A stretch of DNA of 47,124 bases from Acutalibacteraceae bacterium (GTDB lineage Bacteria > Bacillota > Clostridia > Oscillospirales > Acutalibacteraceae). Numbering within the stretch: the stretch's first letter is position 1; the number at the start of each line of letters is the position of its first letter. The position numbers and the translations under genes were made by a program. The notes under the pieces were generated by a model. That model saw nothing but the letters and a program-made list of their open reading frames with translations. It was not told where the DNA came from and did not search any database. The stretch covers positions 1-47,124 of the forward strand of contig JAZPXM010000152.1 in the NCBI GenBank assembly GCA_045543675.1, given 5' to 3'. Of this stretch, positions 17,429-44,821 are shown in pieces.

Positions 17429-17456
17429 GAAAAATACATATGGAGGGAAATCCAAG

Positions 17457-31054: not shown

Positions 31055-31363
31055 ATGTTATTATATTCTATTATTATGTTTTTGGTTGCAGCTCTGTTTA
31101 CGGTACTGGGTATTGCAATTTACAAGGGTAAAACGGATTTAATTCACGATTACCACTAGACAAAAGTCAAAGACAAATCAGCCTACGGAAAAGCCTTTGG
31201 AAAAGCAATGCTTGTTATCGCAACTGCAATGCTACTCAGTGGCATTACAGGACTGTTTGAAAATTTCGGTTTACTCGCCGTTGTTATACTTATCATAGGC
31301 TTGGTGATTGGCTTAGGTTGCATTGTTGCAGTACAAAGAAAGTACAATAACGGAGTATTCTAA
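31055..31363 (+). pseudogene. DUF3784-like small membrane protein gene interrupted by one in-frame TAG
   Basis: AGAGGGGTG RBS plus ATG at 31055. The translation is MLLYSIIMFLVAALFTVLGIAIYKGKTDLIHDYH*TKVKDKSAYGKAFGKAMLVIATAMLLSGITGLFENFGLLAVVILIIGLVIGLGCIVAVQRKYNNGVF, with the TAG at 31157-31159. The frame is otherwise intact across 103 codons. Confidence 0.65.
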
Positions 31364-31532
31364 ACTTGAATTTGTCGAACAGCGCAGCCACACTACTTTT
31401 GGTCGTTTTTGCCCCCACACATACACCTTTTGGTCAGTCTTTCACAACAATATCCGTCCTTGGCACAAATGGGTGATATATCTTCGATATGCTATCTCTC
31501 CTAAAACATATACTATTCTCAATAAATGTAGC

Positions 31533-31568
31533 GTGCTCTCCCCTTTTTCAAGGGGAGAGCACAGTTTT
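31533..31568 (+). terminator. Strong hairpin / probable terminator in non-coding DNA
   Basis: gtgctctcccct / aggggagagcac 12-bp stem with loop ttttca, followed by agtttt. Confidence 0.55.
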
Positions 31569-31984
31569 ATGGCACCGCTTTGCAATAAGCATCCAAAATA
31601 TGCTTATCGGAGAGAGAGGCGCGGTTACCAACCAGTAAAATTACAAAACCCCTGGTCAAACAGGGCTTTGCTGACCACATTTATCGCAATGTAAACGCAT
31701 TTTTGAAAAAACACATTCACCGCTTTTACGGAATACAACCTACTGTTTTGCCGCTGACGGTGAGCATCGTATTTGCTATCGTTGTTATATCGAACAACAT
31801 CTTTGCAGTATTATTTTGTTCCATTATAGCATTATTCTCTGCCGGAGCAACTAAAAAACCTACTGTAATTATATACATATCCTATGAATTAATAATCAAC
31901 CCCTTTGCGCGGGAAGGTGCATCGGTCAAGGGTTTCGTGATATTTTCATTTGAAGAACTTTTTCTTTTTCTGAATCGACTAAGC

Positions 31985-32024
31985 AAAAAGAGAAGATACA
32001 CAAATGTTGTGTATCTTCTCTTTT
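31985..32024 (-). terminator. Terminator of the ten-gene operon (bidirectional hairpin)
   Basis: gagaagatacaca / tgtgtatcttctc 13-bp perfect stem with a 5-nt loop, flanked by an A-run and a T-run. It lies 27 nt beyond the last stop codon at 32051. Confidence 0.85.
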
Positions 32025-32050: not shown

Positions 32051-32332
32051 TTATTTCTTCTCCACCGTATATCCCAGCGCAATGATCAGTTTTATGGTTT
32101 CCAATGCCGTGTTGCGGTCGTACGCTTTTTCGGTTTCGGTTAAATCGGCATACGGCACAAGGCACGGGGTGGTCTTTTTTTCATCATCCCGTTTTTCGCC
32201 GTAGGTCCAACCGTCTGCAATACGCCCCGCCGCCCACACTTCATGGACATTCTCGGCTATTTTTTCGGTAAGTTCTATCAATCCGTCGTCCAACAAAACG
32301 GCAGATGTATCTAAAGGTTTTGGTATATACAT
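32051..32332 (-). CDS. Stand-alone RyR (ryanodine-receptor repeat) domain protein, 93 aa
   Basis: IAENVHEVWAAGRIADGWTYGEKRDDEKKTTPCLVPYADLTETEKAYDRNTALETIK matches the bacterial RyR-domain pattern (H..W....GW.YG...D...K..P.LVPY..L.E.EK..DR). The RBS is AGGAGA. Confidence 0.8.
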   Translation of the reverse strand: MYIPKPLDTSAVLLDDGLIELTEKIAENVHEVWAAGRIADGWTYGEKRDDEKKTTPCLVPYADLTETEKAYDRNTALETIKLIIALGYTVEKK

Positions 32333-32341
32333 CGTATTCTC

Positions 32342-34369
32342 CTAATCTTTTTTCTTCGAAAATTGTGACAAGTCCTGCCACCGCTGCAGGTCAGGATGTA
32401 CAAGCGCACGGTCGGCGCGCCGTTCTCCGTAGCAATACCCGTTCACACGCATATACGCATTCCACCGCATATGCTCGGTCTTTTTACGGCGACACGCTTC
32501 ACAGTAACATATTGTTTTGTCGGTACCGGTACACGGTCCTACCGTGCCAAACGTGCTTTCCAACATCTCTTTATGCACCGCTTTGGCTACCGACGACTGT
32601 CGGTAATACTCGAAGTTCAAGAAAGACGTAATGCCGTTTATCACATTTTGTCTGCCTTCCACACCGTCCGCCTGTATCCAGCGAATGTGGTCGTCAAGCG
32701 CCTGCGCTTCGCGTTTTTGTTCGTTCTCTATCACAGTATACGCAAAATGAGACGATAAATTACCGATAAACTGCACGTGGTACGGTGTACCTTTGTAATT
32801 AACAAGGAACGAATCTTCCTTTTCCCGCGGCTCTACGTTAAGATTTTCCGCCTTTTTATCGTCGTACACCACCGCGTAAATACGGGGTGCATCTGCCGCA
32901 CCTGTTTTCTGCATCACTTCGCAAGCGGCATTATCCACCCCTTGCAAACGGTCAAACAGTTTCCGCAACATAATAGAAACGCGGATATTTTTATCGTCGT
33001 CGCCAAGTGCCACAAACGCCATTGTGGTACGGCGCAGGCGTGCCGCGGATGCGGGATTTTCAAACAAGCGATCAAACGCCGCCGTAAAACAATCCACGTT
33101 CTTATAAAAACGCAGGTCGTAGGTTGCTTCGCCGTCTATGCGGCAAGGATTTTTTGACAGAATTTCGGGACATTCCTGCCGCAATACTTCTTCGATATCC
33201 CGCCGTCCCGTTTTGTCTATGCCGCTGTCCACCACGTTGATTTCCAGCCGATAGCCGTCCATCTGGCAAAACCACAGCGCCGTTTTTAAAATCTGCTTGC
33301 CGTATTCGCCCATACCCACAATGAGCAGTGAAATCACCTTATCATTACACAACTCAAAAACGTGGGATTTACAAAACGTATCCAACACAAGCGAATATAC
33401 GCTGTCCATACGCAAAATGCGGAAACCGCCGTCAAAAGAGAGTCCGCTTGCCTTTGCCCCGTTTTGCAAAAATGCCTGCACATCAAATGCGGGGTCTAAC
33501 AATTTTTCGCGGGTGGCAGGCGGTATCAGCAGGTCGCCTTTTTGTATGGCATCAATAACGTGCGCACCGCCGTCGCTGTTTGCGTATACGTACACGGTGG
33601 TGTTGGCGCGCTTTTTATGCGCGGCGGTCAAGCGAATGGCCTGTTCCAGATTTTCCGACTCATCGTCCCCTATCACAAACAACGCCGCTTTGCGGTTTTT
33701 AGCAAGGCGCAGATGGGTAATATCCTGCTTTAAACAGATACCCCCGACATCGCTTTCCTGTGCTTCACACATTAACGCAAACCCGTCTTCACCGTTTTCC
33801 AAAAACACGTCGGTAAATACGATGGTGGCTTTTTTGCCTTTGGCTTGTCGGATACTGCGTGCTAACGCCACCGACTGCGGATTGAGTTTGGATAACACGT
33901 AAAGCGGCTTTTTGCCGGAAACCGCGTACTGTATACGCGCCGTTACGCTACGGAAAAAAGATAATACGGCAACCGCTGTCAAAACGGGTGCTAACAGCAG
34001 GGTCAGCACCGCCGCGGCGGTATACACCTGCTGTAGCCAATCGGTTGTAACGTTGCTAAGCCCGCTACGTATCATTTCCACGTCGCCGTCCAGCGCAAAC
34101 ACACGCGCCGCTTCCACAAAAGACCAGACAACCGTCGTGAAACGACGGTGGCACAGATTATCTACGTCGTTGACGGTATGTATGATCGGCAGATATTGCA
34201 CCGCAACCGCCACATACGCGCCTGCCGTAAAAACCTGCCACGCGGTAAACAGCCGTTTCGCGCGGGAGACGCGGCGGTGATATACCGCCGCAATCACCAC
34301 CGCTATCGCTATCAACGCCAAAGAAGCCACGCCGAAAACTGCCGCGCGGGCATCTATGGAAGAAAACAT
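32342..34369 (-). CDS. Membrane protein with cytoplasmic Rossmann (TrkA-N/RCK-like) region and C-terminal RyR-like domain, 675 aa
   Basis: N-terminal hydrophobic helices span about aa 9-30, 43-60 and 115-138. A dinucleotide-binding-type loop LLIVGMGEYGKQ is at aa 348-359. The C-terminus EHMRWNAYMRVNGYCYGERRADRALVHPDLQRWQDLSQFSKKKD resembles a RyR domain. No K+ filter (GYG) was seen. Confidence 0.65.
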   Translation of the reverse strand: MFSSIDARAAVFGVASLALIAIAVVIAAVYHRRVSRAKRLFTAWQVFTAGAYVAVAVQYLPIIHTVNDVDNLCHRRFTTVVWSFVEAARVFALDGDVEMIRSGLSNVTTDWLQQVYTAAAVLTLLLAPVLTAVAVLSFFRSVTARIQYAVSGKKPLYVLSKLNPQSVALARSIRQAKGKKATIVFTDVFLENGEDGFALMCEAQESDVGGICLKQDITHLRLAKNRKAALFVIGDDESENLEQAIRLTAAHKKRANTTVYVYANSDGGAHVIDAIQKGDLLIPPATREKLLDPAFDVQAFLQNGAKASGLSFDGGFRILRMDSVYSLVLDTFCKSHVFELCNDKVISLLIVGMGEYGKQILKTALWFCQMDGYRLEINVVDSGIDKTGRRDIEEVLRQECPEILSKNPCRIDGEATYDLRFYKNVDCFTAAFDRLFENPASAARLRRTTMAFVALGDDDKNIRVSIMLRKLFDRLQGVDNAACEVMQKTGAADAPRIYAVVYDDKKAENLNVEPREKEDSFLVNYKGTPYHVQFIGNLSSHFAYTVIENEQKREAQALDDHIRWIQADGVEGRQNVINGITSFLNFEYYRQSSVAKAVHKEMLESTFGTVGPCTGTDKTICYCEACRRKKTEHMRWNAYMRVNGYCYGERRADRALVHPDLQRWQDLSQFSKKKD

Positions 34370-34391
34370 TTTACATCACTGCCTTTTGTGT

Positions 34392-37300
34392 TTAGTCTTT
34401 GAGCACCGCTTCGATTTCGTCGCCCGTCATATGGTTTTTCACCATTAACGTGCCGACAAGCGCATCAATTTTATGCTTATTTTCCGCAATCAGCGCAACC
34501 GCTTTTTGCATCTGCTCTTCTAAGATACGATTCACCGCGGCGTGCACTTGTTCCGCCATACCACCGTTGGGGTCAATCACAGCCAACCCGAAGTCTTTGT
34601 CCATACCGTAACTGCACAAAATCGCCTGCGCCGTACGGGTGGCACTCACAAGGTCGCTCGCAGCGCCCGTGGAAAGCCCGTCTTGTTCCCCGTAATATAC
34701 CAATTCTGCCGCGCGACCGCCCAAAGACGTGCGAATTCTCGCAAGCAGGTCCTCTTTGGAGGATAACGGTTTTTTCTCGGTATCGCCGTGTTGCATATAC
34801 CCACCGTGGTCGCCGCGTGCCACAACGGTGAGATAGGACGGGGTTTCACCGTAGTGCCAATACAGAAAAGCGTGACCCGCCTCATGCCGTGCAACGCGTT
34901 CTAAGGTGGAAATATCCCATTCTTTGCGTTCGCCGCCGTTAAAGGTTTCAAACGCTTCGTCAAAAATCTCGTCGGTAACCTTGCCGTCGCCGTCGCGGAT
35001 CGCCATACGCAAGGACAGTTCCAAAATAGATTCTAACAGTGCCAAACTCATACCCGTAGAACGAATGGCGATGCTGTCGTATTTCGCATCGGTCAATCGG
35101 TATGCAGGGTTGGCCGCCGTACGTTCTTTCAAATACCGCGTGCGTTCGTCGCGGTTGGGCAAATCCACAAAGATACGGCGGTCAAAACGACGCATCAATG
35201 CGGCATCCAAACTCTTTTTGCTGCCCGGTTCCACGTCGAAATTGGTTGCCGCCAACACGAACACGGGTTTGGTCGTATCCTTACGGAAACCGTCCATTTC
35301 GGTAAGCAAGGCGGTCAAGGTCGCTTCTACTTCGCGGGAACCGCCGCTCTCGCCGCCGGTACGTTCCTGCGCGATAGCATCAATTTCGTCGATAAACAGG
35401 ATACTGGGGGCATATTTACGCGCCGTACGGAACAAATCCCGTATCGCGTCGCCGCCCTGTCCGATATACTGTTTGCGGAACTGACTGCCCACCGCAGAGA
35501 TAAAGGTCACGTCCGATTCGCTTGCCATCGCTTTGGCGAGCATAGTTTTACCCGTACCGGGCGGGCCGTACAAAATAACACCTTTCGGGGGTTGTGCACC
35601 CGCAAATTTTTTGGGGTCTTTTAAGTATTTGATGAAATATTGTAATTCTTTTTTTGCGTCTTCAGCGCCTATTACTTCGCTGAACTTCACGTTGGGTTTG
35701 GTGATGTTGCTCAGCACGTTTTTCGCGTCTTCGGCATCCATTGCAACGGTCAAACGGAAGTCAAACAAATGGATACACGCCACGCCTGCCGCCGTGTCTA
35801 CCGTCTGCGACGTGCTAAAGCCCGCCACCTTATTGGCTTTTGCCAATTTGAGCATACTGTTTTGCCGATGGATGCTTTCGCAAATATCCGCAATGCGTGC
35901 AGAGAATGCTTGTGCGCCGTCACAGAAATTCACTTCACCGCGCACGCCCATCCGCGCAAACGAAACTTTTTCTTCCGCCGTATATTCCCTTGCCCCGCGT
36001 GCCATATACACGGGGGTGGTGTTATAGCGGTTATACAGATGTTGTAAAAACGTACGTCCGTCGGATTCTACGTCTTCAATGTTCAGATACCCGTCGGCAT
36101 TTTCTTTTACGCCGCACAGAATATCCACCACCGCAAACGCAATATCCTTTTCACGCAACGCATCGGCGGCTTTAGCCAAATCGTTCGTCACAATAAAATT
36201 GCAGGTATCGTTTTCGGTGCAATACGTCGCGAAAGCATCGTCTGCAAAAATGAGTGCCGTCGGCTTCTCCGCAGGCAGGAACAAATGCCGTACCTGCGCA
36301 TTATCCGCAGGCAATTTCACGCCGATCTTTACGGTTTTCACCGCGCTGACGTTGTCAGCACTCATCAAGCGATACAACTCGTGGATCTCCGCGTTAAAGA
36401 ACGCTTCCGCTCTGCCGCGTACGGTACGTGCATCCGCCGCGCCGCCTTCTGCAAACAGCAACGCCGCGTAAACGGCATCGTCAATGTCAATGGTGATATT
36501 GAATTTCTTTTCAAAGTTATCTGCGTGGCGGCGCATTTCACGCTTGGCAATGCCGACAAGGTTCTGCGCGGTGATGTGGTTAAACATCACCACGTTGCCC
36601 GACGCGAAACGGGAACAGATCGCCGCAGGGAAATACGGCTCGCCGGTTCGCTGGTCAATATCGTTTTGCAACGCACGCAAGATCACCTTTTTGGACAGAC
36701 CCGAAAAATCGGTGATGTCGCTGTCTTCATACAACTGCCGACCTGCGTTGGTGGTGAAGATCAAAATGGCGTCTTTAAAATCAATTTCTTCGTCCGTTTT
36801 GGCATCGCGCAAACGACCGGCATCCAACAACTGCAAAAACAGCGTGATGATGTTATAATGTGCCTTTTCAATTTCGTCAAACAGCAACACACAACGGGGA
36901 TTTTTCTTCACAAAACCCGTGACGTTACCCGCTTTCGCGTTGCGGTATACGTCGTCCGAGCCGACAAATTCCACCGTCGCTTCATGACCCGAATATTCGC
37001 TCATATCAAACCGCTGGAACGGTCTGCCCAGCAGTTGTGCCACCTGCTCCGCCAAAAACGTCTTACCCACGCCGGGAGGGCCTGCGAACAAGAAGGTGGC
37101 AGGACGGGTGCGTTTGTCGTCGGTCATACGCAACATCTCCGACTGGAAAAAGCCGCTGACAAAGGTGCCCACCGCGTTATCCTGACCGAATACCACTTTA
37201 GACAGGCTTGCTTGTATCTCTTTCGCCTGTGCGGTCAACGCCGCAATATCGTCGGCGGTTTCGGTGCTGCCTGCAGACGCCGTCTGTGCGGCAGGTGCCG

Positions 37301-37814
37301 CCGCTTGTGCCGGCTGTGCAGGCGCATTTTGTTGGGTCAGATTGCGGAACGACGCCATAATATCATCAGGAAGCACGCCGCTGTCTGCCAATTTAGTCGT
37401 AACGGGAATGACACCGTCTTTTATGCACACTTTGAGCAACCCGTCCATCACCGCATTCGGGCGGAGAATAATATCTTCCAATACCGCGGCAACGGTCAGT
37501 TCTTTTGCTTGTTTTTCCGCGCGGTCTTTGGCTTCCAGCAGTATTTTCTGCATAAACAAGCCGTCAAAATACGCCGCGGGCGCTGTACTGTTTATGTGGG
37601 ACATCATCACCTTTTTCAGTTTGCCCGTATCCAACTGTGCCATAGCGATAACGGCGGATATTTCCTGCAAATTTGCACCTTCCACCGTATATACGTGGTC
37701 TAAAAGGTCGACCACCGCCACCAAAAAGCGATGCGCCGTTAACGGCTTATTTTCGCCGCCAACGGTTTTGGCATACGCCAAAACCTGCTCTAATATCGTC
37801 TGTTTTGTACTCAT
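34392..37814 (-). CDS. Chimeric soluble AAA+ protease: Clp_N-like N-domain, ClpA/B D2-type AAA+, receiver-like insert, FtsH-type AAA+, M41 zinc peptidase (1140 aa)
   Basis: The Clp D2-type block is VFGQDNAV...FLFAGPPGVGKTFLAE...FDMSEY...LLFDEIEKAH...LLQLLDAGRLRD...ILIFTTNAG. The FtsH-type block is GVILYGPPGTGKTMLAKA...ILFIDEIDAI...ATNFD...LMRRFDRRIFVDLP. The M41 motifs are HEAGHAF (aa 977-983) and GAASDLVSATRTAQ. No TM helix is present. Confidence 0.85.
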   Translation of the reverse strand: MSTKQTILEQVLAYAKTVGGENKPLTAHRFLVAVVDLLDHVYTVEGANLQEISAVIAMAQLDTGKLKKVMMSHINSTAPAAYFDGLFMQKILLEAKDRAEKQAKELTVAAVLEDIILRPNAVMDGLLKVCIKDGVIPVTTKLADSGVLPDDIMASFRNLTQQNAPAQPAQAAAPAAQTASAGSTETADDIAALTAQAKEIQASLSKVVFGQDNAVGTFVSGFFQSEMLRMTDDKRTRPATFLFAGPPGVGKTFLAEQVAQLLGRPFQRFDMSEYSGHEATVEFVGSDDVYRNAKAGNVTGFVKKNPRCVLLFDEIEKAHYNIITLFLQLLDAGRLRDAKTDEEIDFKDAILIFTTNAGRQLYEDSDITDFSGLSKKVILRALQNDIDQRTGEPYFPAAICSRFASGNVVMFNHITAQNLVGIAKREMRRHADNFEKKFNITIDIDDAVYAALLFAEGGAADARTVRGRAEAFFNAEIHELYRLMSADNVSAVKTVKIGVKLPADNAQVRHLFLPAEKPTALIFADDAFATYCTENDTCNFIVTNDLAKAADALREKDIAFAVVDILCGVKENADGYLNIEDVESDGRTFLQHLYNRYNTTPVYMARGAREYTAEEKVSFARMGVRGEVNFCDGAQAFSARIADICESIHRQNSMLKLAKANKVAGFSTSQTVDTAAGVACIHLFDFRLTVAMDAEDAKNVLSNITKPNVKFSEVIGAEDAKKELQYFIKYLKDPKKFAGAQPPKGVILYGPPGTGKTMLAKAMASESDVTFISAVGSQFRKQYIGQGGDAIRDLFRTARKYAPSILFIDEIDAIAQERTGGESGGSREVEATLTALLTEMDGFRKDTTKPVFVLAATNFDVEPGSKKSLDAALMRRFDRRIFVDLPNRDERTRYLKERTAANPAYRLTDAKYDSIAIRSTGMSLALLESILELSLRMAIRDGDGKVTDEIFDEAFETFNGGERKEWDISTLERVARHEAGHAFLYWHYGETPSYLTVVARGDHGGYMQHGDTEKKPLSSKEDLLARIRTSLGGRAAELVYYGEQDGLSTGAASDLVSATRTAQAILCSYGMDKDFGLAVIDPNGGMAEQVHAAVNRILEEQMQKAVALIAENKHKIDALVGTLMVKNHMTGDEIEAVLKD

Positions 37815-37825
37815 TTCCCTATCTC

Positions 37826-38302
37826 CTATCTTTTGCCGATGCTTTCTAAGAAATCATGCAGAGAAAGTGTGCCTTTTGCCAATGCATCCACACGGTCGTT
37901 ATACATATCCACCGCTGTACACGTGTAGGATATCATATACTGCAAAAGTCCGTCCCCGATTGTGCTTTCCACGAAAGATGCCGATTGACGGAACCAGCAA
38001 ATCCCCTCACGGATATCAAAATCAAACGAACCGTCCGCCAGCGGATAGGTCATGGCGCAAGCGGCTATGGCGCCTTCTAATCGTCTGTCTTCGGGGAACA
38101 CGCTGAGCAACGGTGACAACACGCGTACCACCTGCCGCTGTGCGTCCACCACAATGATAAACTTCATCAACAAATCTTCGCCGGTCACGCCGAAATGCAT
38201 GGTCAACTTTTCTTCGTCTTTTTCGTAGTTCCAGTTGCGGGCGTCTATCGCGGCACACAAACCCGCAAACACTTCACGTGCCTTGTTTATGTTTTCACTC
38301 AT
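37826..38302 (-). CDS. YbjN-family (type III secretion chaperone-like fold) protein, paralogue 2
   Basis: About 158 aa and acidic, with the pattern ...NW.YE.DEE...M.FGV.GED..M.F.I.VD..RQ.V...SPL....ED.R... typical of YbjN/DUF2596-like proteins. It is clearly paralogous to the upstream gene. Confidence 0.6.
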   Translation of the reverse strand: MSENINKAREVFAGLCAAIDARNWNYEKDEEKLTMHFGVTGEDLLMKFIIVVDAQRQVVRVLSPLLSVFPEDRRLEGAIAACAMTYPLADGSFDFDIREGICWFRQSASFVESTIGDGLLQYMISYTCTAVDMYNDRVDALAKGTLSLHDFLESIGKR

Positions 38303-38314
38303 TTTGCCGCCCCC

Positions 38315-38797
38315 TTATCGTGCAAACCAATCTTCTACAAAGCGCTGTACATCCAGTTCGCCGGTAGAAATGGCCTTAAATTTATCGTTGAATTTATCGG
38401 TCAACCCGCAAGAAACGGATATCATCGTATCCAACGCGCGTACGCTGATATCGCTTTCCAGATAACTCTGGGTGATGCGAAAGCCCAATGTTCCCGATGC
38501 AATGTCGTAATCGAAATTGCCTTCCGCCAACAAACTGTTGACGGCACAAACGGCGATTGCCAAATCTAACCGTTTATCTTCCGCGACCCGAAAGTTCAGC
38601 GGAGAAATCAGCATCACGATTTTTCGTTCCGCATTTACCGAAATGTGCATCTCCATCGGTATGTCTTCGCCGTTGACACCAAACGTGATATCTAACGACT
38701 CGTCATCCCTTTGATAGTGCCATTGGCGTGCGTCCAACGCACTGCATATTTTTTCGTATATGTTTTTCGCGTTTTGCGCCGTAGTTGCATCAAACAT
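38315..38797 (-). CDS. YbjN-family protein, paralogue 1
   Basis: It aligns along its whole length with the 37826-38302 product (ICSALDARQWHYQRDDESLDITFGVNGEDIPMEMHISVNAERKIVMLISPL versus LCAAIDARNWNYEKDEEKLTMHFGVTGEDLLMKFIIVVDAQRQVVRVLSPL). Confidence 0.6.
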   Translation of the reverse strand: MFDATTAQNAKNIYEKICSALDARQWHYQRDDESLDITFGVNGEDIPMEMHISVNAERKIVMLISPLNFRVAEDKRLDLAIAVCAVNSLLAEGNFDYDIASGTLGFRITQSYLESDISVRALDTMISVSCGLTDKFNDKFKAISTGELDVQRFVEDWFAR

Positions 38798-38800
38798 CGT

Positions 38801-40045
38801 TTATCCCCCTAATTTCCGCAACATTTCCGTGAAGCGTTGCTCACACAGATCGTCGTTCTTTATTTTGATTACCGTAATACCCATTTCGGCGGCGCGATTG
38901 ACAATCGCTTCGCCGCTTTCCCGCATTTCATCCAAGCGGGTGGCAACCAGCACTTTTTTAGCGTACTGTCCGCCAAACCGTTCGGCAACGGTAGACAGTT
39001 TATACAGTTCGTCCGATTTAAAGTTGCGGCCGTTTTTGCAGGAAATGAAAATCGGGGTCAGGTCTTTCATCAACATAACGTCCATTTCATTGTTCACTTC
39101 CTGCTTGTCCGCTTCCAGTTTGCCGTCCCAGTCGATGGTGACCCCCGTCATCACGTCGTCAAACAGCGGCTTGCCGTCTTGGTCGGTAAGGTTTCTCGCC
39201 GTTTGGGTCACAAACAACTCCAGCACCCTGCCCGCATTGGTAAGACACCGCTTTACCTGCTCGTTTTTGTAGGTAAAGGCAATGCCTGCGGTAGAAAAGG
39301 TCAGGTTTTGTATCAAATCATACGTTTCCAGTTCTTTGAAGAAACTGCCCGAGAAAAACGCGGGGTACCCTCTTTGTAACAGTACGTCTTTGACCTGCTC
39401 GGGTTCAATAAACACCGACAATGCTGTTTTATCCTGCACACAGCAGGTGTGAAAGCCGTCTAACGCGTGCACCGCATCGTTCCATTGTGCGTAATTCTTC
39501 TTGCAGATGCGCCACATACGGTCAAGGTCGGCACAAAATGCCTGATTAAAATCCCAACGGTAGGTGGTGTTTTCTTTTTCTGCTTCAAAGATCACCCGTC
39601 CGCCATACGCTTTCACGTTTTCTTCAATGGTCAAAGATGCCTGTTTTACGGCGAGTATCTGCCCGTCCGCATCGCAGTCATATAACCTGCCGTTGCGGAT
39701 ATTAAAGCGATGCAGTTGTACTTTATCACGGTGGGCACAAAACACAGCGCCTACTGCCACCAGATACAAATCTTCGCCACCGGTCAGATCAAATGTACAT
39801 TCACCGTATTTGGCAATGATCGTTTCCAGCTTTTTGATAATATCTTGCAGATCGTTGCGGTTTACCGATTCATACGAAAAGGTCACCTGCAGTTGATGCG
39901 CCGCCGCGATCTCTTCGTACCGTACTTTGGCTTTTGCCATACGTTTGTGGTTATCACCCACCAGCACCACCCGTTCGGGTGCACACAGCAAGGCGCTGAC
40001 GATATTTTCCACCGCATTGGTGTCAAAAAATTCTACAACCGTCAT
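38801..40045 (-). CDS. Card1/Can2-like protein: N-terminal CARF-type Rossmann domain plus C-terminal DUF1887/PD-(D/E)xK nuclease-fold domain
   Basis: The N-terminus ENIVSALLCAPERVVLVG...FDLTGGEDLYLVAVG resembles the CARF core of Card1 (..NITGGTK..). The C-terminus NEMDVMLMKDLTPIFISCKNG...ELYKL resembles the DUF1887 nuclease core. This rests on my recollection of the family pattern, not on a search. Confidence 0.65.
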   Translation of the reverse strand: MTVVEFFDTNAVENIVSALLCAPERVVLVGDNHKRMAKAKVRYEEIAAAHQLQVTFSYESVNRNDLQDIIKKLETIIAKYGECTFDLTGGEDLYLVAVGAVFCAHRDKVQLHRFNIRNGRLYDCDADGQILAVKQASLTIEENVKAYGGRVIFEAEKENTTYRWDFNQAFCADLDRMWRICKKNYAQWNDAVHALDGFHTCCVQDKTALSVFIEPEQVKDVLLQRGYPAFFSGSFFKELETYDLIQNLTFSTAGIAFTYKNEQVKRCLTNAGRVLELFVTQTARNLTDQDGKPLFDDVMTGVTIDWDGKLEADKQEVNNEMDVMLMKDLTPIFISCKNGRNFKSDELYKLSTVAERFGGQYAKKVLVATRLDEMRESGEAIVNRAAEMGITVIKIKNDDLCEQRFTEMLRKLGG

Positions 40046-40056
40046 ATCCGCACCCC

Positions 40057-40338
40057 TTATTGCAGTTTTATAAATGCGTTTAAGTCGTCGGTATAAATTT
40101 CCAAAACCTGTAACAAACGGTCGGTGGCTTCGTTTTTGGTAAACAACAATACAAGCGACAAAAAGGTGTTCCAGGTCATATCCCGTTTGCCGGTTTCAAT
40201 GGCAATCACCGTACCGCGCGACACGCCTATTTTATCTGCCAATTCTTCCTGCGTCAGCCCCAATGCCGTACGCAAGGTCGGCAAATTAGCGGTCATATTG
40301 CGAATCAATTTCGCACGATCCATTTCTTTTTCGGTCAT
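40057..40338 (-). CDS. XRE-family HTH protein inside the operon
   Basis: LRTALGLTQEELADKIGVSRGTVIAIETGKRDMTWNTFLSLV. The ATG at 40338 lies 8 nt after GGAG, and an alternative GTG at 40347 overlaps the clpP stop. Confidence 0.75.
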   Translation of the reverse strand: MTEKEMDRAKLIRNMTANLPTLRTALGLTQEELADKIGVSRGTVIAIETGKRDMTWNTFLSLVLLFTKNEATDRLLQVLEIYTDDLNAFIKLQ

Positions 40339-40343
40339 TGTAC

Positions 40344-40922
40344 TCACTCCGTAATCACATGGTCAATAATGCCGTAGCGCAATGCTTCGTCCGCAAACAT
40401 CCAGTTGTTGCGGTCGGTATCCCGCTCGATTTCTGCGGGAGTATGCCCCGTATTCGCGGCGAGAATGGTATTAAACCGCTCTTTCAGGCGCTGTAAATGG
40501 CGGGATTCCACCACAATATCGGTCGCCTGTCCCGCAGCGGCACTCATCACTTGATGAATCATGATCTGGCTGTTTTCCTGCGCATACCGTTTGCCTTTGG
40601 TGCCTGCCGCCAGCAAAAACGCGCCCATACTCGCCGCCTGTCCCACACAAATGGTGGAAACGTCACATTTGAGTTTTTTGACGGTATCATAAATACCCAA
40701 CCCCGCCGATACACTGCCGCCGGGAGAGTTGATGTACAGCGAAATATCCTTGTGCGGGTCCAACGACTCCAGATACAGCAGTTGTGCAATCACCGAACAC
40801 GCCAAGTCGTCGTTCACTTCGTTAAATAACAGTACGATACGGTCTTTTAACAGACGGGAAAACAGGTCGTACCCATGCTCCACACCGCCGTCTCTTTCGT
40901 AAAAATTCGGATTCAGTATCAT
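40344..40922 (-). CDS. clpP: ATP-dependent Clp protease proteolytic subunit paralogue
   Basis: Full-length ClpP-like sequence: YDLFSRLLKDRIVLL, LYINSPGGSV, VSTICVGQAASMGAFLLAAG (Ser), IMIHQ (His), ERDTDRNNWM (Asp). Confidence 0.9.
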   Translation of the reverse strand: MILNPNFYERDGGVEHGYDLFSRLLKDRIVLLFNEVNDDLACSVIAQLLYLESLDPHKDISLYINSPGGSVSAGLGIYDTVKKLKCDVSTICVGQAASMGAFLLAAGTKGKRYAQENSQIMIHQVMSAAAGQATDIVVESRHLQRLKERFNTILAANTGHTPAEIERDTDRNNWMFADEALRYGIIDHVITE

Positions 40923-42547
40923 TTTTTACCGTCCTTTCTTCCGTACAAATTTTCATACGTCTGCGCCGCTTTTTCCTGCAGTTTGGTGTCTTGCGCTGTT
41001 GTTTTCTTCTTAGGTGCAGACTTCTTTTTCGGTTTTTGGGGTTTTGCTTGCGGTAACGTTATTTCCATTTCGTGCGTTGCCGTAAACGGGAACGGTTTTT
41101 TACCCGCCAAAATGTCGTTTAACAGCGTATCCACCGAGAACTGCGCCACCTGCGGCATACGGAATGCCCTCTGCTTGGGTGCTGTATACCCTTTAAACGC
41201 TTCGTACATATCGATATCCGCCATTTCGGTGATAATGGGATACTGCCGCGCGTGCATGATCAGCGTCTCGCCCTTTTGCTTGTCAAACCGCTGTAATTCC
41301 GACACCGAAATCATCGCCCGACGGCGTCCGTCAGCGGTATATATCTCCCCGCACAAGGCGCTGATCTCCTGCAACAACGACAATTCCTTAGACGTTAAAA
41401 ATACCCAGTTATCGCAGTTACCTTTAATGGTGTCGGCATCTTCGCCGTACTTACCTTTCAGTTGGTGCATACTCTGTGCCACCAGGAAATACCGCATATT
41501 ACGGCTTCTCGCCGCCGAGATCATCGCCGGCATATCCGGCACTTTGGGGATATTACAAAACTCGTCCAACACGAAGTTGACACGCACAGGCAAGCGGAAA
41601 TTCTTTTCTTTTTGCGCTTCGGAGATCAACACTTCATACGCCTGCTTAATAAAGGTGGTAACAAGAAAATGGTAGGTGGTTTTTTCGTCGGGCACAATAA
41701 TGTACACCGCCGTTTTCTCTCTGCCGAACCGCCGCATATCCACTGTGTTACCGCTTAACATTTTGGTAAGATTGGGCTGGGTGTTGAAGATGCGCACCAT
41801 ACCGTACAGCACCGCAAAAATACTGCGGCGGGTATTTTCCGCACCTGCCAACACACCTTTGTAATTCATTCCCGCAATGGTCTCGTCACTCATTCTTTCG
41901 GCAAGTTTTGTGAGCACCTTCTCACTCGCCGTAGAACACAAGCCGGACAGCGAGCCGACGTTCATTTCTTTCGCCGTGCCGCATTCCGCCATCAACAGCA
42001 GATTGGCAAGTGCATACGCGCTTGCCATTTCCGGCCAGAACACGTCTTTGGTGTTCGCCTTTTGCGGTTCGGCGATGGTGTTGACAAAATCGTTGAGCAT
42101 CGAGATACCTTGCTCTTTGTTTTCCGAATGGTACATTTCATACGGCAAAGCAAGCGGATTCCACATATCACCGTGACCGATGTCACGGAAGTTGAGTACG
42201 ACGGTTTTATACCCTTTGGTTTTTACAAAACCCGCGGTTTTTGCGTACAGTTCCCCTTTCGGGTCGGTGACCACAAACGATTCACCCGCACCTGCAAACA
42301 ACCCGATAAACGGCATACAGAACAAACGGGTCTTCTTGGACCCCGTCGCGCCGAAAATCAGCGTGTGGGTATCCGCACCGTCCACGTACGCCTCTTTGCC
42401 GTCGGACAGCAACGGCAAACCTGCCACGGGATAGGTGTCGGCAAAAAGGTCTACGTAGGTGCCCGCCCGTTTCATCTCTTCTACGGTCGACCAACGCGTT
42501 TCTTGGTTGCCGACCATATATCTGTCATATCGATGGGTGCTTCCCAT
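40919..42547 (-). CDS. Soluble VirD4/TraG-like (type IV coupling protein family) P-loop ATPase, no N-terminal TM anchor
   Basis: HTLIFGATGSKKTRLFCMP (Walker A, aa 66-73), FVVTDPKGELY, VNFVLDEFCNIPKVPDMPAMISAARSRNMRYFLVAQSMHQL and NCDNWVFL blocks are typical of T4CP/TraG-D_C. The N-terminus is hydrophilic. Confidence 0.75.
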   Translation of the reverse strand: MGSTHRYDRYMVGNQETRWSTVEEMKRAGTYVDLFADTYPVAGLPLLSDGKEAYVDGADTHTLIFGATGSKKTRLFCMPFIGLFAGAGESFVVTDPKGELYAKTAGFVKTKGYKTVVLNFRDIGHGDMWNPLALPYEMYHSENKEQGISMLNDFVNTIAEPQKANTKDVFWPEMASAYALANLLLMAECGTAKEMNVGSLSGLCSTASEKVLTKLAERMSDETIAGMNYKGVLAGAENTRRSIFAVLYGMVRIFNTQPNLTKMLSGNTVDMRRFGREKTAVYIIVPDEKTTYHFLVTTFIKQAYEVLISEAQKEKNFRLPVRVNFVLDEFCNIPKVPDMPAMISAARSRNMRYFLVAQSMHQLKGKYGEDADTIKGNCDNWVFLTSKELSLLQEISALCGEIYTADGRRRAMISVSELQRFDKQKGETLIMHARQYPIITEMADIDMYEAFKGYTAPKQRAFRMPQVAQFSVDTLLNDILAGKKPFPFTATHEMEITLPQAKPQKPKKKSAPKKKTTAQDTKLQEKAAQTYENLYGRKDGKK

Positions 42548-43416
42548 TACACAGCACCACCTTTCACAAGCCCTATGGTGTTCACTTTTTCCAAATTGGC
42601 AACGGTGCGTTCCACGTACGCGCTGTCGGGTGCAAACGCCGCTAACGTATCTGCGTGTAATTCACGGGTTGCCAACTTGCCGCTCGAAAATACCGTGTAC
42701 GCAATTTCCTGACACAGCAACCCCAGCGATTTATACCCGTCAAAATATTTGTTTTTGCGCATCTTATCCACCGTTTTGCCAAGCAATTCCCGTCCGTCTG
42801 TCGCAAGGGTCAAGCCGTAAGCGGCAAGATTTTTTTCGATATAATCGGTCAGGTCCTGCGTGTTGGGCAGTTTCAGTTCCACCCGCTCTATACGCAAAAA
42901 CATAGACAAAAACGCTTCTAAATTATGTAACTTCTGTTTGTCCGCACAACTGACAGACAGAATAATAAACCACGTATCTTTATGCGCGGCAAGGTATTCC
43001 ATAAAATGCGCGAAATACCGCTCTTCGTAGTGGTCTACCCATTCGTCCACGTCGATACGGATAATCCCTTTAAACTCGCTGCGGAAACCCGCCGCATTTT
43101 TTACCGCTTCCATCAACCGTTGCAATTCGCTGAACGGCGCGGCAGGCGGCGTATACCCCAGCACAAACTCGAAGAATTTCACGTCCCCGTAAAACTCCAT
43201 CAAATTACCCTTAGATTCCAGATATTCCGCAATCAGTTCCAGAAAGAACGTTTTGCCGACACCTGATTTTGCCACCCACAACATATCGGGCAACAAAATG
43301 GGCGCATGCACGGGTTGATCCCGCATATTTTCGGACAGCGTTTCCCATTTTCTGATCAACGGGCGTAACTGTTCCGCTTCTTTTTGTCGCATCACCTTAT
43401 CAAAACACGTTTCCAT
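42547..43416 (-). CDS. P-loop/AAA-like ATPase of unknown function
   Basis: Walker A is WVAKSGVGKTFF, and a possible Walker B is IIRIDVDEW. The ATG at 43416 (METCFDKV) follows AGGGGG. The stop overlaps the VirD4-like start (TAATG). Confidence 0.5.
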   Translation of the reverse strand: METCFDKVMRQKEAEQLRPLIRKWETLSENMRDQPVHAPILLPDMLWVAKSGVGKTFFLELIAEYLESKGNLMEFYGDVKFFEFVLGYTPPAAPFSELQRLMEAVKNAAGFRSEFKGIIRIDVDEWVDHYEERYFAHFMEYLAAHKDTWFIILSVSCADKQKLHNLEAFLSMFLRIERVELKLPNTQDLTDYIEKNLAAYGLTLATDGRELLGKTVDKMRKNKYFDGYKSLGLLCQEIAYTVFSSGKLATRELHADTLAAFAPDSAYVERTVANLEKVNTIGLVKGGAV

Positions 43417-43441
43417 AGCGATACCCCCTATACGTAATTTT

Positions 43442-43470
43442 ATCATAATACAAAAAGTCACAAAATGCAA
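43442..43470 (-). promoter_or_regulatory. Candidate promoter of the ten-gene operon
   Basis: The minus strand reads TTGCAT (43470-43465), a 17-nt spacer, then TATGAT (43447-43442), about 26 nt upstream of the first ATG. Confidence 0.55.
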
Positions 43471-43517
43471 CATTTTATTCTGTTTTGAAAGAAAATGTTC
43501 TTTTTTTATATAAAGTC

Positions 43518-43546
43518 TTTCAAAACCGCCTGCGCTGTGCTATAAT
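43518..43546 (+). promoter_or_regulatory. Candidate divergent promoter (extended -10)
   Basis: TGcTATAAT at 43538-43546 with a weak -35 (tttcaa) 17 nt upstream. Confidence 0.4.
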
Positions 43547-43574
43547 AAAGCGGTATAAAAAGGGGGTAACCGCT

Positions 43575-44819
43575 ATGATAAGCCCGTATATTTTGCGGTA
43601 CGCGACTACCGAAGCTACAGCAGAGCGTATCCGGTATTTTTTAAGAGACTGTTTTCATATTTGTCAGCGCGAACTGCCCGAAGAACAACGCAGTGTGTTA
43701 ATGGCGTGTGACTTGATATGGGATTTTGAAAATAACACGTGTTTCCCGCTGTTTATTCGCCGCGGGTACGGGTTTTGTGACCTTGTCACCGACCCGCTCG
43801 CCCCCGCGCAGAAAAACCTGTTTGAAAACGCAAATTTTCTCACGGATGTGGAAGACCGTCGATATCTTTTGCGGTTAGAGCGGCCCCTCAATCCCCTGAT
43901 GCGTGAAAAAGAAGAAACGCTGAGCAAAAGCGTGTTGCGGTCTTTGCGCGGTTGGTATCAACAGCACGATTTGACGCAAAGCGCCGCCTGTGCGGCAATA
44001 CAAATCGAACAATGCGGCTTTTTCGGGGTTGTCGACCCGCGCGGGAACGTATTGGTCCCGCCGCTGTATAAAAGCATCGTTCCCTTTTCCGTACGGTTGC
44101 AGGAAATTGCTTTGTTTGTGTGTTATCGCGGCGACAAGTTTACCAACACGGTGGACGTATACGATATCAACGGCAACAAGATATACGAAAACATCGGCGG
44201 ATTATATTTACATACCGAAGAAGTAAAATACGCTTTTTCCGGTGAAGACGGCAACGCGCCCGGCGCACGGGTTGCGGAAACATTGCGGGTGGTACAGTAC
44301 ACACAACCGCCGCTTTCAGACAAAGCGCCGCCGTATAAAGAGTATATTCGAAAGGTCAGCAACTTACGCCTTTTGCCCGTTGCAGAGAAGGACGACGGTC
44401 CCCGACGGCTGGCGCGGTTTTCCGACGCTTTGTCGTATGGTCGCAACATCGAAACCATAGATCTGCGGGATATTCACGACGTGTTGTACCCGCTCGCCGA
44501 AAAAATGGGCGCTTACCACGGGGAAACCGCCGCAGAAATTATGCTCAGCATTCCCCATTGGAACTTTTTCCGCAAGGGACATACCCGTATGGACGCGGTC
44601 GTTCCCGACCTGCCGCTTCATTTGTTATTGGATATGCCCGAAAATATACGCACGTTTTTTGAAAATATCGGCTTAAAAACCGTTACTGACGTTGCCAATA
44701 CCGACTTAACAGACTTTTGCAACGGTGACCGATCTTTGGAATTCGCGGTGTTTTTATTTCAGGCGCAGATACAATACACCTTGGCACATCCCGCAGAAGA
44801 TGATGAACAGGAGACATAA
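43575..44819 (+). CDS. Hypothetical protein with WG-repeat-like segments
   Basis: The ATG at 43575 follows AAGGGGG. GFFGVVDPRGNVLVPPLYKSIVPF and VDVYDINGNKIYENI resemble WG/KWG beta-repeats. The C-terminus NIRTFFENIGLKTVTDVANTDLTDF is HhH-like. Confidence 0.4.
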   Translation: MISPYILRYATTEATAERIRYFLRDCFHICQRELPEEQRSVLMACDLIWDFENNTCFPLFIRRGYGFCDLVTDPLAPAQKNLFENANFLTDVEDRRYLLRLERPLNPLMREKEETLSKSVLRSLRGWYQQHDLTQSAACAAIQIEQCGFFGVVDPRGNVLVPPLYKSIVPFSVRLQEIALFVCYRGDKFTNTVDVYDINGNKIYENIGGLYLHTEEVKYAFSGEDGNAPGARVAETLRVVQYTQPPLSDKAPPYKEYIRKVSNLRLLPVAEKDDGPRRLARFSDALSYGRNIETIDLRDIHDVLYPLAEKMGAYHGETAAEIMLSIPHWNFFRKGHTRMDAVVPDLPLHLLLDMPENIRTFFENIGLKTVTDVANTDLTDFCNGDRSLEFAVFLFQAQIQYTLAHPAEDDEQET

Positions 44820-44821
44820 AT

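Follow-up and report, generated by a model that had tools for sequence, protein, structure and literature searches.

A candidate conflict operon of Oscillospirales assembled from two separately recurring modules, one around a Card1-like protein and one around a membrane-less VirD4-like ATPase

Layout of the operon

The DNA analyzed here, called the window throughout, is a stretch of 47,124 nucleotides (nt) from an Acutalibacteraceae bacterium (Clostridia; Oscillospirales; GenBank assembly GCA_045543675.1, contig JAZPXM010000152.1). In the list of its open reading frames (ORFs), ten on the minus strand, all codirectional, span positions 32051 to 43473. We number them g1 to g10 in the direction of transcription. 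They encode an AAA+-fold protein (g1), a soluble ATPase of the type IV coupling protein family (g2), a ClpP paralogue (g3), a small helix-turn-helix (HTH) protein (g4), a Card1/Can2-like protein (g5), two YbjN-like proteins (g6 and g7), a two-ring AAA+ protease (g8), a membrane protein ending in half of a RyR domain (g9), and a small stand-alone RyR protein (g10). An earlier, sequence-only reading of this DNA had taken them for a single operon and for a candidate defense or conflict system. The analysis reported here shows that they form two recurrent modules, g1 to g4 (module A) and g5 to g10 (module B), rather than one fixed ten-gene system.

That the ten genes are a real operon is borne out by the layout. 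By their coordinates, g1 and g2 overlap by 1 nt, g2 and g3 by 4 nt, and g3 and g4 by 4 nt, and the gaps from g4 onward to g10 measure, in order, 11, 3, 12, 11, 22, and 9 nt. The ORFs and the tight junctions are as the sequence-only reading described them, and the terminator (z = -5.95) is real. Downstream of g10, 27 nt past its stop codon, lies an intrinsic-terminator-like hairpin (31986 to 32024, minus strand), a perfect 18-nt inverted repeat with a predicted folding energy of -28.7 kcal/mol; none of 200 shuffled sequences was equally stable. Signals for initiation are less uniform. A purine-rich ribosome-binding site had been claimed for every gene; it is clear for eight of the ten and weak for g4 and g9. 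The promoter proposed for the operon, TTGCAT-17-TATGAT, can indeed be read upstream of g1 (43442 to 43470, minus strand), but it is a weak match to the consensus, falls below the threshold of our promoter scan, and lies in a region that is not enriched for promoter-like sites (19 found, compared with 16.5 expected from shuffles), so its function is presumed only. The longest g1 ORF opens at 43473; an alternative ATG at 43416 is preceded, 7 nt upstream, by a GGGGG Shine-Dalgarno sequence and is most likely the true start, judging from the sequence. With that start, the promoter-like site falls upstream of the gene and not inside it.

The full ten-gene set was found in the window only, which is what speaks for a chance juxtaposition of unrelated codirectional genes, and the idea of ten genes conserved as one unit did not survive, given that the two modules also occur apart. 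Such a juxtaposition is nonetheless scarcely credible. Stop and start codons overlap, the remaining gaps are only 3 to 22 nt, and a single terminator follows; moreover, eight of the genes, g1 to g8, stand in the same order in a second locus (L003, between ffh/rpsP/trmD and mraZ/rsmH), the same order is seen in two others up to the contig ends (L004, in which no ORF was called for ClpP, and L013, in which g1 would lie off the contig), and subsets recur in dozens of species.

Module A: a coupling-protein ATPase without a membrane anchor, its AAA+-like partner, ClpP, and an HTH protein

The first gene, g1 (42547 to 43416, minus strand; the listed ORF reaches 43473), encodes a protein of 289 amino acids (aa) without a Pfam match or a PDB sequence match. 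Its AlphaFold2 model (pLDDT 85.5) has an AAA+ fold, with CbbX as the best Foldseek match (3syl, E = 3e-9), followed by RuvB and RFC. The fold called by the sequence-only reading, a P-loop/AAA-like ATPase, is therefore upheld; the ATPase part is less secure. The Walker A lysine is kept in only about 83 of 120 homologues, the others having R, I, V, Q, or N, and from this pattern g1 is probably not always an active ATPase. A different feature is kept much better. The tripeptide IG(L/F) is found near the C terminus in 117 of 120 close homologues, and [ILVM]G[FLY] at the corresponding end in 96 of 107 distant full-length ones; in the model it sits in a low-confidence, probably flexible tail. We take this C-terminal [KR]x(I/V/L)G(F/L) motif to resemble the IGF loop of ClpX ("GIGFG"), which plugs into ClpP. 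Clustering at 50% identity puts the g1 family at 722 clusters among 1.84 billion representatives, a small and coherent group. One entry identical to g1 (P0241) carries the NCBI label of an Elusimicrobiaceae metagenome-assembled genome (MAG); all relatives come from Clostridia, and the label is probably a binning error.

The second gene, g2 (40919 to 42547, minus strand), encodes a soluble VirD4/TraG-like ATPase of 542 aa. Membership in the type IV coupling protein family is clear from Pfam (T4SS-DNA_transf, 1.7e-40; TraG-D_C, 1e-24; TrwB_AAD_bind, 4.5e-15), and the NCBIfam model conju_CD1115 is just passed (280 bits, with a cutoff of 250). The Pfam match begins at residue 50 and the N terminus is not hydrophobic, so the protein is without a membrane anchor. 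In its Walker A (G..GSKKT) and Walker B (LDEF) motifs, G66, K72, and D328 are invariant and E329 is nearly so. The C-terminal tail (encoded at 40919 to 41100; homologues P0121 to P0132) has a conserved Y..LYG(K/R)K after a low-complexity linker rich in Lys and Pro.

Next comes the ClpP paralogue g3 (40344 to 40922, minus strand; Pfam CLP_protease, 2.7e-72). It passes the NCBIfam model PRK00277 (269, cutoff 249) and scores 254 with the equivalog TIGR00493, under the cutoff of 309; on inspection, the catalytic Ser (GQAASMG), His (MIHQ), and Asp are present. The start of g4 (40057 to 40347, minus strand) overlaps the end of clpP by 4 nt; g4 is an XRE-type HTH protein of 96 aa (HTH_3, 4.6e-10) with weak PADLOC matches to control proteins and to CapH. 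The ClpP-HTH pair is also found in L003, L013, and L086, and in L004 an HTH ORF follows a clear tblastn match to ClpP, although the ORF caller gave no ClpP ORF there.

Module B: a Card1-like protein, YbjN-like proteins, a two-ring protease, and RyR proteins

Within a single chain, g5 (38801 to 40045, minus strand) joins an N-terminal CARF domain to a C-terminal restriction-endonuclease-like domain of the PD-(D/E)xK type, in the manner of Card1 and Can2. The PADLOC profile CARF4--CARF_PDDEXK matches residues 2 to 410 (1.3e-34), and the Card1_endonuc profile matches as well. The AlphaFold2 model (pLDDT 91.9) finds VC1899 (7.6e-22) and cA4-bound Can2 (7bdv, 6.8e-20) as its nearest Foldseek relatives, then Cdn1 and Card1; the alignments to 7bdv, 6xl1, 6wxw, and 1xmx are full length, with E values of 1e-16 to 1e-22 and TM scores of 0.6 to 0.78. 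The CARF motif D-x-x-G-G-(D/E), in g5 FDLTGGED, is present in 183 of 202 family members.

The nuclease half departs from the textbook motif. Its catalytic strand reads D322...S335-C-K337 where VC1899 and Can2 align E-C-K, so the canonical D...(D/E)xK pattern is not found in g5, the glutamate of ExK being a serine. The S-C-K strand is kept in 200 of 202 family members, including those linked to CRISPR. A glutamate in the helix that follows, E346 of DELYKL, is kept in 193 of 202; the residue there is Thr in VC1899 and Can2. Among active restriction enzymes, Cfr10I and NgoMIV have an SxK strand and recruit a Glu from a neighboring helix. By analogy with them, the Ser/Glu swap may preserve nuclease activity in the g5 family.

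The next two genes encode small proteins likened to type III secretion chaperones. YbjN (PF10722) matches g6 (38315 to 38797, minus strand) with E = 0.0012 and 19.5 bits, under the cutoff of 22, and gives no match for g7 (37826 to 38302, minus strand), a paralogue that clusters with g6 and shares 41% identity with it. Across the family, YbjN is matched by 15 of 22 members (best, 6e-9), and a tandem pair of this type is present in about 12 related loci. A PDB search with the YbjN profile returned only de novo designed proteins. YbjN proteins have been placed in a "TY-chaperone" superfamily of peptide binders resembling type III secretion chaperones (PMC9503650).

The largest product, g8 (34392 to 37814, minus strand; 1,140 aa), is a soluble AAA+ protease with two rings. 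A ClpA/B-D2-like AAA_2 ring (5.8e-35) is followed by a variable middle, an FtsH-like AAA ring (4.7e-51), and a Peptidase_M41 domain (1.1e-26) with the HEAGH site; the NCBIfam FtsH equivalog scores 347, under its cutoff of 600. In 20 homologues, both Walker A/B pairs and HEAGH are conserved, and the first 200 residues and residues 470 to 690 are poorly conserved. Pfam searches on isolated pieces of g8 detected neither the Clp_N domain claimed by the sequence-only reading nor any domain in the middle region, and an N-terminal membrane segment is absent. We considered g8 as the partner of the g3 ClpP and dropped the idea because g8 has no IGF-like tripeptide for docking to ClpP.

The last two genes bring in the RyR domain. 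In the 675-aa protein encoded by g9 (32342 to 34369, minus strand), Kyte-Doolittle plots give clear hydrophobic segments at residues ~4 to 35 and 112 to 144, and residues 43 to 62 are a candidate by eye. A Rossmann domain is suggested by TrkA_N at 22.8 bits (cutoff 23.8), and the C-terminal ~50 residues (627 to 675) are RyR-like: hhalign against the g10 family gives a probability of 95.6% and an E value of 1e-8, and the Pfam RyR match (0.013, 16 bits) is below cutoff and covers half of the domain. A full RyR (R12) domain is carried by g10 (32051 to 32332, minus strand; 93 aa), with a PF02026 match of 1.7e-36 and 124.8 bits (cutoff 27.4). Most of the domain calls of the sequence-only reading were thus confirmed, the exceptions in this half of the operon being Clp_N in g8 and the RyR domain of g9, which is a half only. 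In the phage protein RyDEP, the ligand-binding and catalytic residues are H75, W78, H100, and D117 (PMC13232231). By motif mapping, the g10 family keeps the H..W pair and the Asp of YDR, with T-P in place of the H-P of the second RyDEP His; the g9 family keeps EHxRW and KxH, again by motif mapping rather than structural alignment.

Neighborhoods of the Card1-like gene

The Card1-like family comprises 823 clusters in the protein database, and 516 stretches matched it in a genome set holding one genome per species. The counts below are for the 80 best-matching of these 516 stretches, and a partner is a homologue of another operon gene within 10 kb of the Card1-like gene. Related genomes among the 80 are not independent samples. 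The loci (cited by our locus numbers) are labelled almost entirely as Clostridia, among them Acutalibacteraceae, Oscillospiraceae, Ruminococcus, and relatives. The partner seen most often is the AAA-AAA-M41 protease (21 of 80), followed by the membrane RyR protein (20), the small RyR protein (19), YbjN (13), the VirD4-like ATPase (5), and ClpP (4). By our estimate, chance would place a single-copy gene within 10 kb in under about 1% of genomes of 2 to 3 Mb, and the associations of the Card1-like gene with its partners are therefore not chance.

Which partners are present, and in which order, varies widely. There are pairs of Card1 and RyR genes (L016, L058, L076, and L081), triads of Card1, membrane RyR, and RyR genes (L011, L071, and L078), pairs of protease and Card1 genes (L001, L007, and L017), and one array that runs YbjN-YbjN-Card1-protease-membrane RyR-RyR (L083). 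In one lineage, the Card1-like gene keeps a fixed synteny, from YfhO/YgjV to GHMP kinase/PHP, within which the protease and the membrane RyR gene are present or absent. Two loci, L047 and L027, have a VirD4-like gene that is 27% identical to g2, stands next to ClpP, and lies within ~5 kb of the Card1-like gene; L047 also has the YbjN pair and both RyR genes.

Sequence divergence separates the two halves of the operon as well. Between the window and its closest relative, L004, g1 to g4 are 83 to 91% identical, g5 to g8 are 45 to 63% identical, and the flanking genes are 49 to 73% identical; on these figures the effector half (g5 to g8) evolves faster than g1 to g4. The listed homologues of g5 are 41 to 99% identical to it, only four of them above 66%.

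Several further features of these neighborhoods deserve mention in their own right. In L047 (4658 to 5765) and L054, a protein of ~285 aa and an 87- to 94-aa CxxC protein precede YbjN-YbjN-Card1; the larger one has a weak ECF-sigma match (TIGR02937, E = 3e-4, under the cutoff). L055 has the small protein only, L040 has the ~285-aa protein only, and in L073 the CxxC protein flanks the YbjN pair on the far side of the cluster. The two resemble a sigma/anti-sigma pair. In L020 (2911 to 7704) and L053 (3132 to 7885), a conserved trio lies upstream of transglutaminase-like and Card1-like genes. It includes a protein of 707 to 724 aa with a weak match to PP2C phosphatases and a kinase-like protein of 516 to 545 aa that matches PD-T4-6, mad6, and MkoA in PADLOC; a YbjN-like gene is found further upstream. 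Two contigs of one MAG (RGIG3008; L061 and L063) carry the same array of a c40 zinc-ribbon protein, Card1, AAA-M41 protease, and membrane RyR protein, as either a duplication or an assembly redundancy. The recurrent neighbors c40 (~550 aa, zinc ribbon), c39, c431, and c432 gave no or weak matches in Pfam, PADLOC, and NCBIfam, as did the 444-aa protein encoded divergently from the operon and the proteins of 680 to 958 aa found beside Tubulin_2; among these otherwise unmatched neighbors, c37 is an exception, having one member with a weak ECF-sigma match.

Links to known immunity

The sequence-only reading noted that cas genes are missing, which is true of the window and not of the family. In two loci, L006 and L039, the Card1-like gene ends a type III-B operon with the order Cas6-Cmr1-Cas10-Cmr3-Cmr4-Cmr5-CorA-like-Card1-like (L039 has an extra ORF before CorA), and in L027 the Card1-like gene stands beside Cas13d and a CorA-like gene. 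In all three, the gene directly upstream encodes a full-length CorA-like CRISPR ancillary protein (PADLOC, 2.6e-68). The Cas10 of L006 has the GGDD cyclase motif; a repeat array lies ~1.3 kb past the Card1-like gene in that locus, and a YbjN-like gene lies just upstream of cas6. Because its g5 family is found in Cmr operons and beside Cas13d, module B belongs to the world of CRISPR ancillary signaling.

One can therefore ask whether g5 to g10, perhaps all ten genes, do no more than serve as ancillary genes to a type III CRISPR-Cas system located at another place in the genome. They would then be an orphan cassette answering to cyclic oligoadenylate and would extend a type of system already known instead of forming a separate one. 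The terminal position of the g5-family genes in the two Cmr operons, the YbjN-like gene upstream of Cas6, and the match of the g5 fold to cA4-bound Can2 and to Card1 all point that way. Against it, just 2 of the 80 species-representative loci have cas10 less than 10 kb from the Card1-like gene, and most have no cas genes at that distance; none of the sampled Cmr operons was seen to include the protease, RyR, or VirD4-like partners; the TIR-TPR and RyR components hint at another type of signal, one built on ADP-ribose; and g1-g2 also pairs with cargo that is not CARF based. We regard this explanation as possible but doubtful, and it is largely compatible with the reading of the locus as a conflict operon that we prefer.

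Other conflict genes recur near these genes, which counts in favor of the sequence-only reading: TIR, type III CRISPR, and VWA neighbors are all represented. Genes for proteins with TIR_2 and TPR domains separate Card1 from the protease gene in L048 and L068 and adjoin Card1 in L028 and L031. Upstream of g1-g2 in L086 are three TIR genes and a methyltransferase gene, and beside g1-g2-ClpP-Card1 in L188 are genes for a kinase, a UvrD-like helicase, and a wHTH-PRTase_assc protein. In phages, proteins of the RyR/R12 type (PF02026) use an H, a W, an H, and a D to bind or hydrolyze 2'/3' cyclic ADP-ribose (cADPR), the TIR-made signals of Thoeris (2026 preprint, PMC13232231).

As for named systems, the sequence-only reading could assign the operon to none, and none matched in PADLOC. 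None of the papers and PADLOC models we found describes a Card1-type nuclease together with a two-ring protease, YbjN, and host RyR proteins, an earlier mention being still possible. Nor did we find a paper or PADLOC model for a g1-g2(-ClpP) core with swappable cargo. The main texts of a 2025 CRISPR classification and of a 2026 domain-centric defense screen contain none of these partners.

Neighborhoods of the VirD4-like gene and mobility

For g2, the sample consists of 80 metagenome loci and seven database look-ups. All 120 listed clusters of g2 homologues are 63 to 99% identical to g2. In the sampled loci, homologues with identities of at least 41 to 44% are mostly 490 to 620 aa long and never lie in a type IV secretion system (T4SS) array; in every locus that includes the region upstream of this g2-clade gene, L089 being the sole exception, a g1-like gene (~285 to 325 aa) comes before it. 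Homologues in the 34 to 41% range are for the most part larger proteins, of up to 975 aa, and on long contigs most of their genes adjoin those for a VirB4-like ATPase, a TrbL/VirB6-like protein, and an M23/lysozyme cell wall hydrolase. By these sequence comparisons, the g2 clade is separate from the coupling proteins embedded in T4SS loci.

What follows the g1-g2 pair differs from locus to locus. It is the ClpP-HTH-Card1 module in the window, L003, and L004; Card1 directly in L084; and ClpP-Card1 in L188. In L086 (12595 to 21608) and L189 (10303 to 17626), g1-g2-ClpP, with or without the HTH gene, is followed instead by genes for a large protein and a 1,223- to 1,224-aa Tubulin_2 protein, along with a 660- to 680-aa protein of unassigned family; the large protein of L086 has a VWA domain, and a giant transglutaminase-domain protein is encoded further downstream. 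Nothing recognizable follows the pair in L087, L190, L191, and the metagenome loci L088 to L101.

These lone pairs bring up a quite different explanation, in which g1 to g4 form a lineage-specific housekeeping machine, either a ClpP-coupled translocase of DNA or protein that clears DNA-bound or stalled proteins or a machine with a role in sporulation or replication restart, and the Card1 and RyR genes are unrelated passengers. The very high conservation of g2 fits such a role, as do the positions of the lone pair next to core genes, DnaB_2/IstB-like and EF-G among them, the housekeeping flanks of the window (spoIIA operon, ispF, prfA, and tsaC), and the absence of the g1-g2 pair from plasmids and viral contigs. 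It does not account well for a core that keeps turning up beside TIR, CARF-nuclease, VWA/Tubulin_2, and transglutaminase genes, in several arrangements and even where identity is low, for the VirD4-like genes of L047 and L027, which are only 27% identical and still lie by ClpP and less than 5 kb from a Card1-like gene, or for the translational coupling of the window genes in one operon. On balance we consider it unlikely.

The sequence-only reading held that the operon is part of neither a conjugative element nor a prophage, and this stands. The scanned ORFs of the window include no gene for an integrase, a transposase, a relaxase, a T4SS component, or a capsid, portal, or terminase protein, and no cas gene, the unscanned ones being six of 150 to 300 aa at 13361 to 17190, beside a surface-protein gene, and a few smaller ones. 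In IMG/VR there is no g5-family member, and the best VirD4-like match is 40% identical to g2, within the identity range of the T4SS-embedded homologues; in PLSDB the best match to g2 is only 30% identical, with no close relative. A prophage or plasmid origin was rejected because close relatives of g2 and g5 are lacking in these two databases.

The same reading had also pointed to a tRNA gene and decayed DNA next to the operon. These are present: a tRNA-Leu gene at 30696 to 30782 is separated from g10 by a spacer of ~1.27 kb that contains the lowest-GC kilobase of the window (38.8%, 31001 to 32000), short AATGATG repeats, and a small membrane-protein ORF broken by an in-frame stop. The step from there to an island lacks an integrase or att-like evidence. 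A decayed integrative conjugative or mobilizable element at tRNA-Leu would fit this spacer, and it would fit the score of g2 above the NCBIfam cutoff for a conjugal VirD4-like family, but we judge it very improbable. In the scanned ORFs no integrase, relaxase, or T4SS gene accompanies the operon, and we found no second, direct copy of the tRNA end; g2 and the rest of its clade stand apart from the homologues embedded in T4SS loci; and at 48 to 55% GC the operon matches the remainder of the window. Relatives of the operon are found at several different chromosomal sites, none at a tRNA gene, with housekeeping flanks. The integrative conjugative element remnant was rejected on the lack of mobility genes and on these other sites.

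A proposed conflict operon with two modules

We favor the interpretation that these genes make up an immune-type (conflict) operon on the chromosome of Oscillospirales Clostridia, composed of two separately recurring modules and working by a mechanism such as that outlined below, and we put the probability of this at roughly one half.

We imagine that the CARF domain of g5 would sense a cyclic oligoadenylate and that g5 would then cut nucleic acid. The oligoadenylate would come from a Cas10-type cyclase; some relatives encode one adjacently, and this genome presumably does so at another site. The RyR proteins g10 and g9 might bind an adenine-nucleotide signal, either one derived from ADP-ribose or the oligoadenylate itself, with g10 buffering the signal and g9 coupling it to an effect at the membrane. 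The YbjN pair, which evolves fast, and the two variable domains of g8, at its N terminus and in its middle, could hold and remove protein partners, thereby arming or resetting the response.

Module A, in turn, may be a domesticated type IV coupling-protein ATPase that has done without the membrane, with g2 as motor and substrate receptor and g1 as an AAA+-like adaptor whose C-terminal IGF/IGL tail would dock to ClpP. Together g1 and g2 could capture a protein, or a DNA-bound protein, and feed it to ClpP; the XRE repressor g4 would be a likely regulator or substrate.

A number of observations weigh against this interpretation. In 42 of the 80 loci, some of them on short contigs, no partner lies within 10 kb of the Card1-like gene, and this gene is often in conserved chromosomal synteny, which makes it less patchy than typical defense genes. 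Comparing the neighborhoods of the VirD4-like and Card1-like homologues, as the sequence-only reading suggested, did bring out recurrent modules, yet A and B are adjacent in only about 6 to 8% of the Card1-anchored loci. The nuclease activity of g5 is not assured, its sequence having Ser in place of the ExK Glu. Genes g1 to g4 are under strong purifying selection, the g1-g2 pair is often found by itself amid housekeeping genes (DnaB_2/IstB-like and EF-G among others), and such a lone pair fits a housekeeping role equally well. No enzyme that would make the signal (Cas10, CD-NTase, or TIR) is encoded in the window. Finally, PADLOC-DB v2.0.0 gave no system-level match, returning generic or single-domain matches only (CARF4-PDDEXK, an IetA-like AAA, HTH control proteins, and a weak mad8).

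A bolder version of the conflict idea can be envisioned, one we hold only tentatively and consider rather doubtful. Here g1-g2-ClpP would be a new ATP-dependent protease and immune sensor core with swappable cargo, and host RyR proteins would gate a membrane protein. The coupling protein would capture, for example, incoming relaxase-DNA or phage protein-DNA complexes, and the CbbX-like adaptor would dock to ClpP. The cargo might be the module of Card1, RyR, and FtsH-like proteins in some genomes and that of VWA, Tubulin_2, and transglutaminase proteins in others. Host RyR proteins acting as second-messenger receptors would then be a bacterial antecedent of the ligand control of ryanodine receptors.

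If the conflict-operon reading is right, CARF-based immune signaling gains a two-ring soluble protease of the Clp/FtsH type, proteins resembling type III secretion chaperones, and host RyR proteins. The binding and cleavage of cADPR by RyR domains was shown only in 2026, and on the phage side only (PMC13232231). It would also mean that a chromosomal coupling-protein ATPase without a membrane anchor travels with an AAA+-like protein bearing a ClpX-like IGF/IGL tail; g2 would illustrate how a part of the conjugation machinery can be put to new use, and g1-g2, often beside a ClpP of its own, is a testable candidate for a new ClpP partner. The Card1-like family is found mainly in uncultured gut Oscillospirales, in which almost no immune systems have been tested, and the 516 matching stretches, with their variable architectures, provide a ready data set for comparative work.

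Surroundings of the operon

A neighboring operon is divergent from g1 (43485 to 46898, plus strand). It encodes the 444-aa protein of unassigned family, a PrsW-family membrane protease (PrsW, 4.6e-21), and a transglutaminase-like protein (Transglut_core, 3.4e-6), and it is syntenic in L004. In L011, L057, and L066, Card1-like genes have a PrsW gene less than 10 kb away. A transglutaminase-like gene immediately precedes the Card1-like gene in L020 and L053; in L079 it is also upstream, but at a distance of ~2 kb and separated by two ORFs. The divergent operon may belong to the same system; these occurrences are suggestive only.

Elsewhere, the window looks like ordinary chromosome. Its flanks hold an AP-endonuclease-family gene, an operon of the spoIIAA/spoIIAB/sigma-F type, ispF, a gene for an M18 aminopeptidase, prfA, tsaC, ABC transporter genes, a surface-protein gene, and a lysine riboswitch. 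The riboswitch (17218 to 17385, plus strand; Rfam RF00168, 99.6 bits) is at the 5' end of an Na_H_antiporter-family ORF (17307 to 19091), whose TTG start at 17307 overlaps the aptamer; the real start is probably further downstream. The surface protein (7106 to 13348, minus strand; 2,080 aa) has seven FctA/Spy0128-like isopeptide domains together with VWA_2, DUF7601, and SpaA-like parts and looks like the product of a pilus or adhesin gene. Just past tRNA-Leu, a 12-nt unit of the CTAATGATGTCG type is present in three direct copies and in inverted copies (30827 to 30970 and 31036 to 31360).

Comparison with known systems

The small RyR protein g10 is like RyDEP and other phage RyR proteins in its full PF02026 domain and in keeping, by motif mapping, the H..W and Asp positions (PMC13232231). 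It differs from them in being host encoded, in being partnered with a CARF nuclease, and in having Thr for the second ligand His; g9 differs further, being half of an RyR domain fused to a membrane Rossmann protein.

With VirD4, TraG, and TrwB, g2 shares the nucleotide-binding and all-alpha domains, intact Walker A and B motifs, and a score above the CD1115 cutoff. Unlike them, it has no membrane anchor, no T4SS or relaxase gene nearby, and a g1-like AAA+ gene as its partner, and it is chromosomal and highly conserved, with a best plasmid homologue that is 30% identical.

The parallel with the HerA-effector systems (Sir2-HerA and DUF4297-HerA), drawn by the sequence-only reading, holds in part. 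A gene for a P-loop ATPase of the hexameric translocase type stands beside a nuclease gene, and in L084 the VirD4-like and Card1-like genes are directly adjacent. However, g2 belongs to the VirD4 clade of the FtsK-HerA superfamily and not to the HerA clade, and it gave no PADLOC HerA match, it has an extra AAA+ partner and ClpP, and the nuclease has a CARF domain of its own.

Like CalpL-CalpT-CalpS and CapP-CapH, the locus joins proteases to a small DNA-binding regulator, here g4, and to a CARF sensor, and some relatives carry instead of the regulator the weakly ECF-sigma-like gene and the small CxxC protein. In the operon described here, CARF is fused to a nuclease rather than to a protease, and the proteases, ClpP and AAA-M41, are ATP dependent.

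Likeness to ClpXP and ClpCP lies in the catalytic triad of g3, the ClpA/B-type AAA_2 ring of g8, and the tail of g1, which is like the IGF loop of ClpX; likeness to FtsH lies in the FtsH-type AAA ring and the M41 HEAGH site of g8. FtsH is membrane anchored with a single AAA ring, whereas g8 is soluble with two. Moreover, g8 is without an IGF-like loop, g3 and g8 are both under the equivalog cutoffs, and the proposed docking motif, carried by ClpX itself in the known machine, would here be on g1, a CbbX-like AAA+ protein that has lost the Walker A lysine in ~30% of its members.

A further comparison is with Can2, Card1, VC1899, and Cdn1. Can2 and Card1 are ancillary nucleases of type III CRISPR-Cas systems that combine CARF with PD-(D/E)xK and are activated by cA4. 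The whole fold of g5, its CARF4-PDDEXK class, and its CARF D-x-T-G-G motif are shared with this group, and members of its family end Cmr operons beside CorA-like genes. The differences are that the g5 family has an S-C-K strand and a Glu in the next helix, not E-C-K; that most copies are orphans away from cas genes; and that g5 is embedded with ATP-dependent proteases, YbjN, and RyR proteins. The fold family of g5, and CARF-effector signaling as a kind of system, are thus known already, and the best reading of the locus is a nucleotide-signal-linked variant of CARF-effector immunity, acting through a mechanism that we infer.

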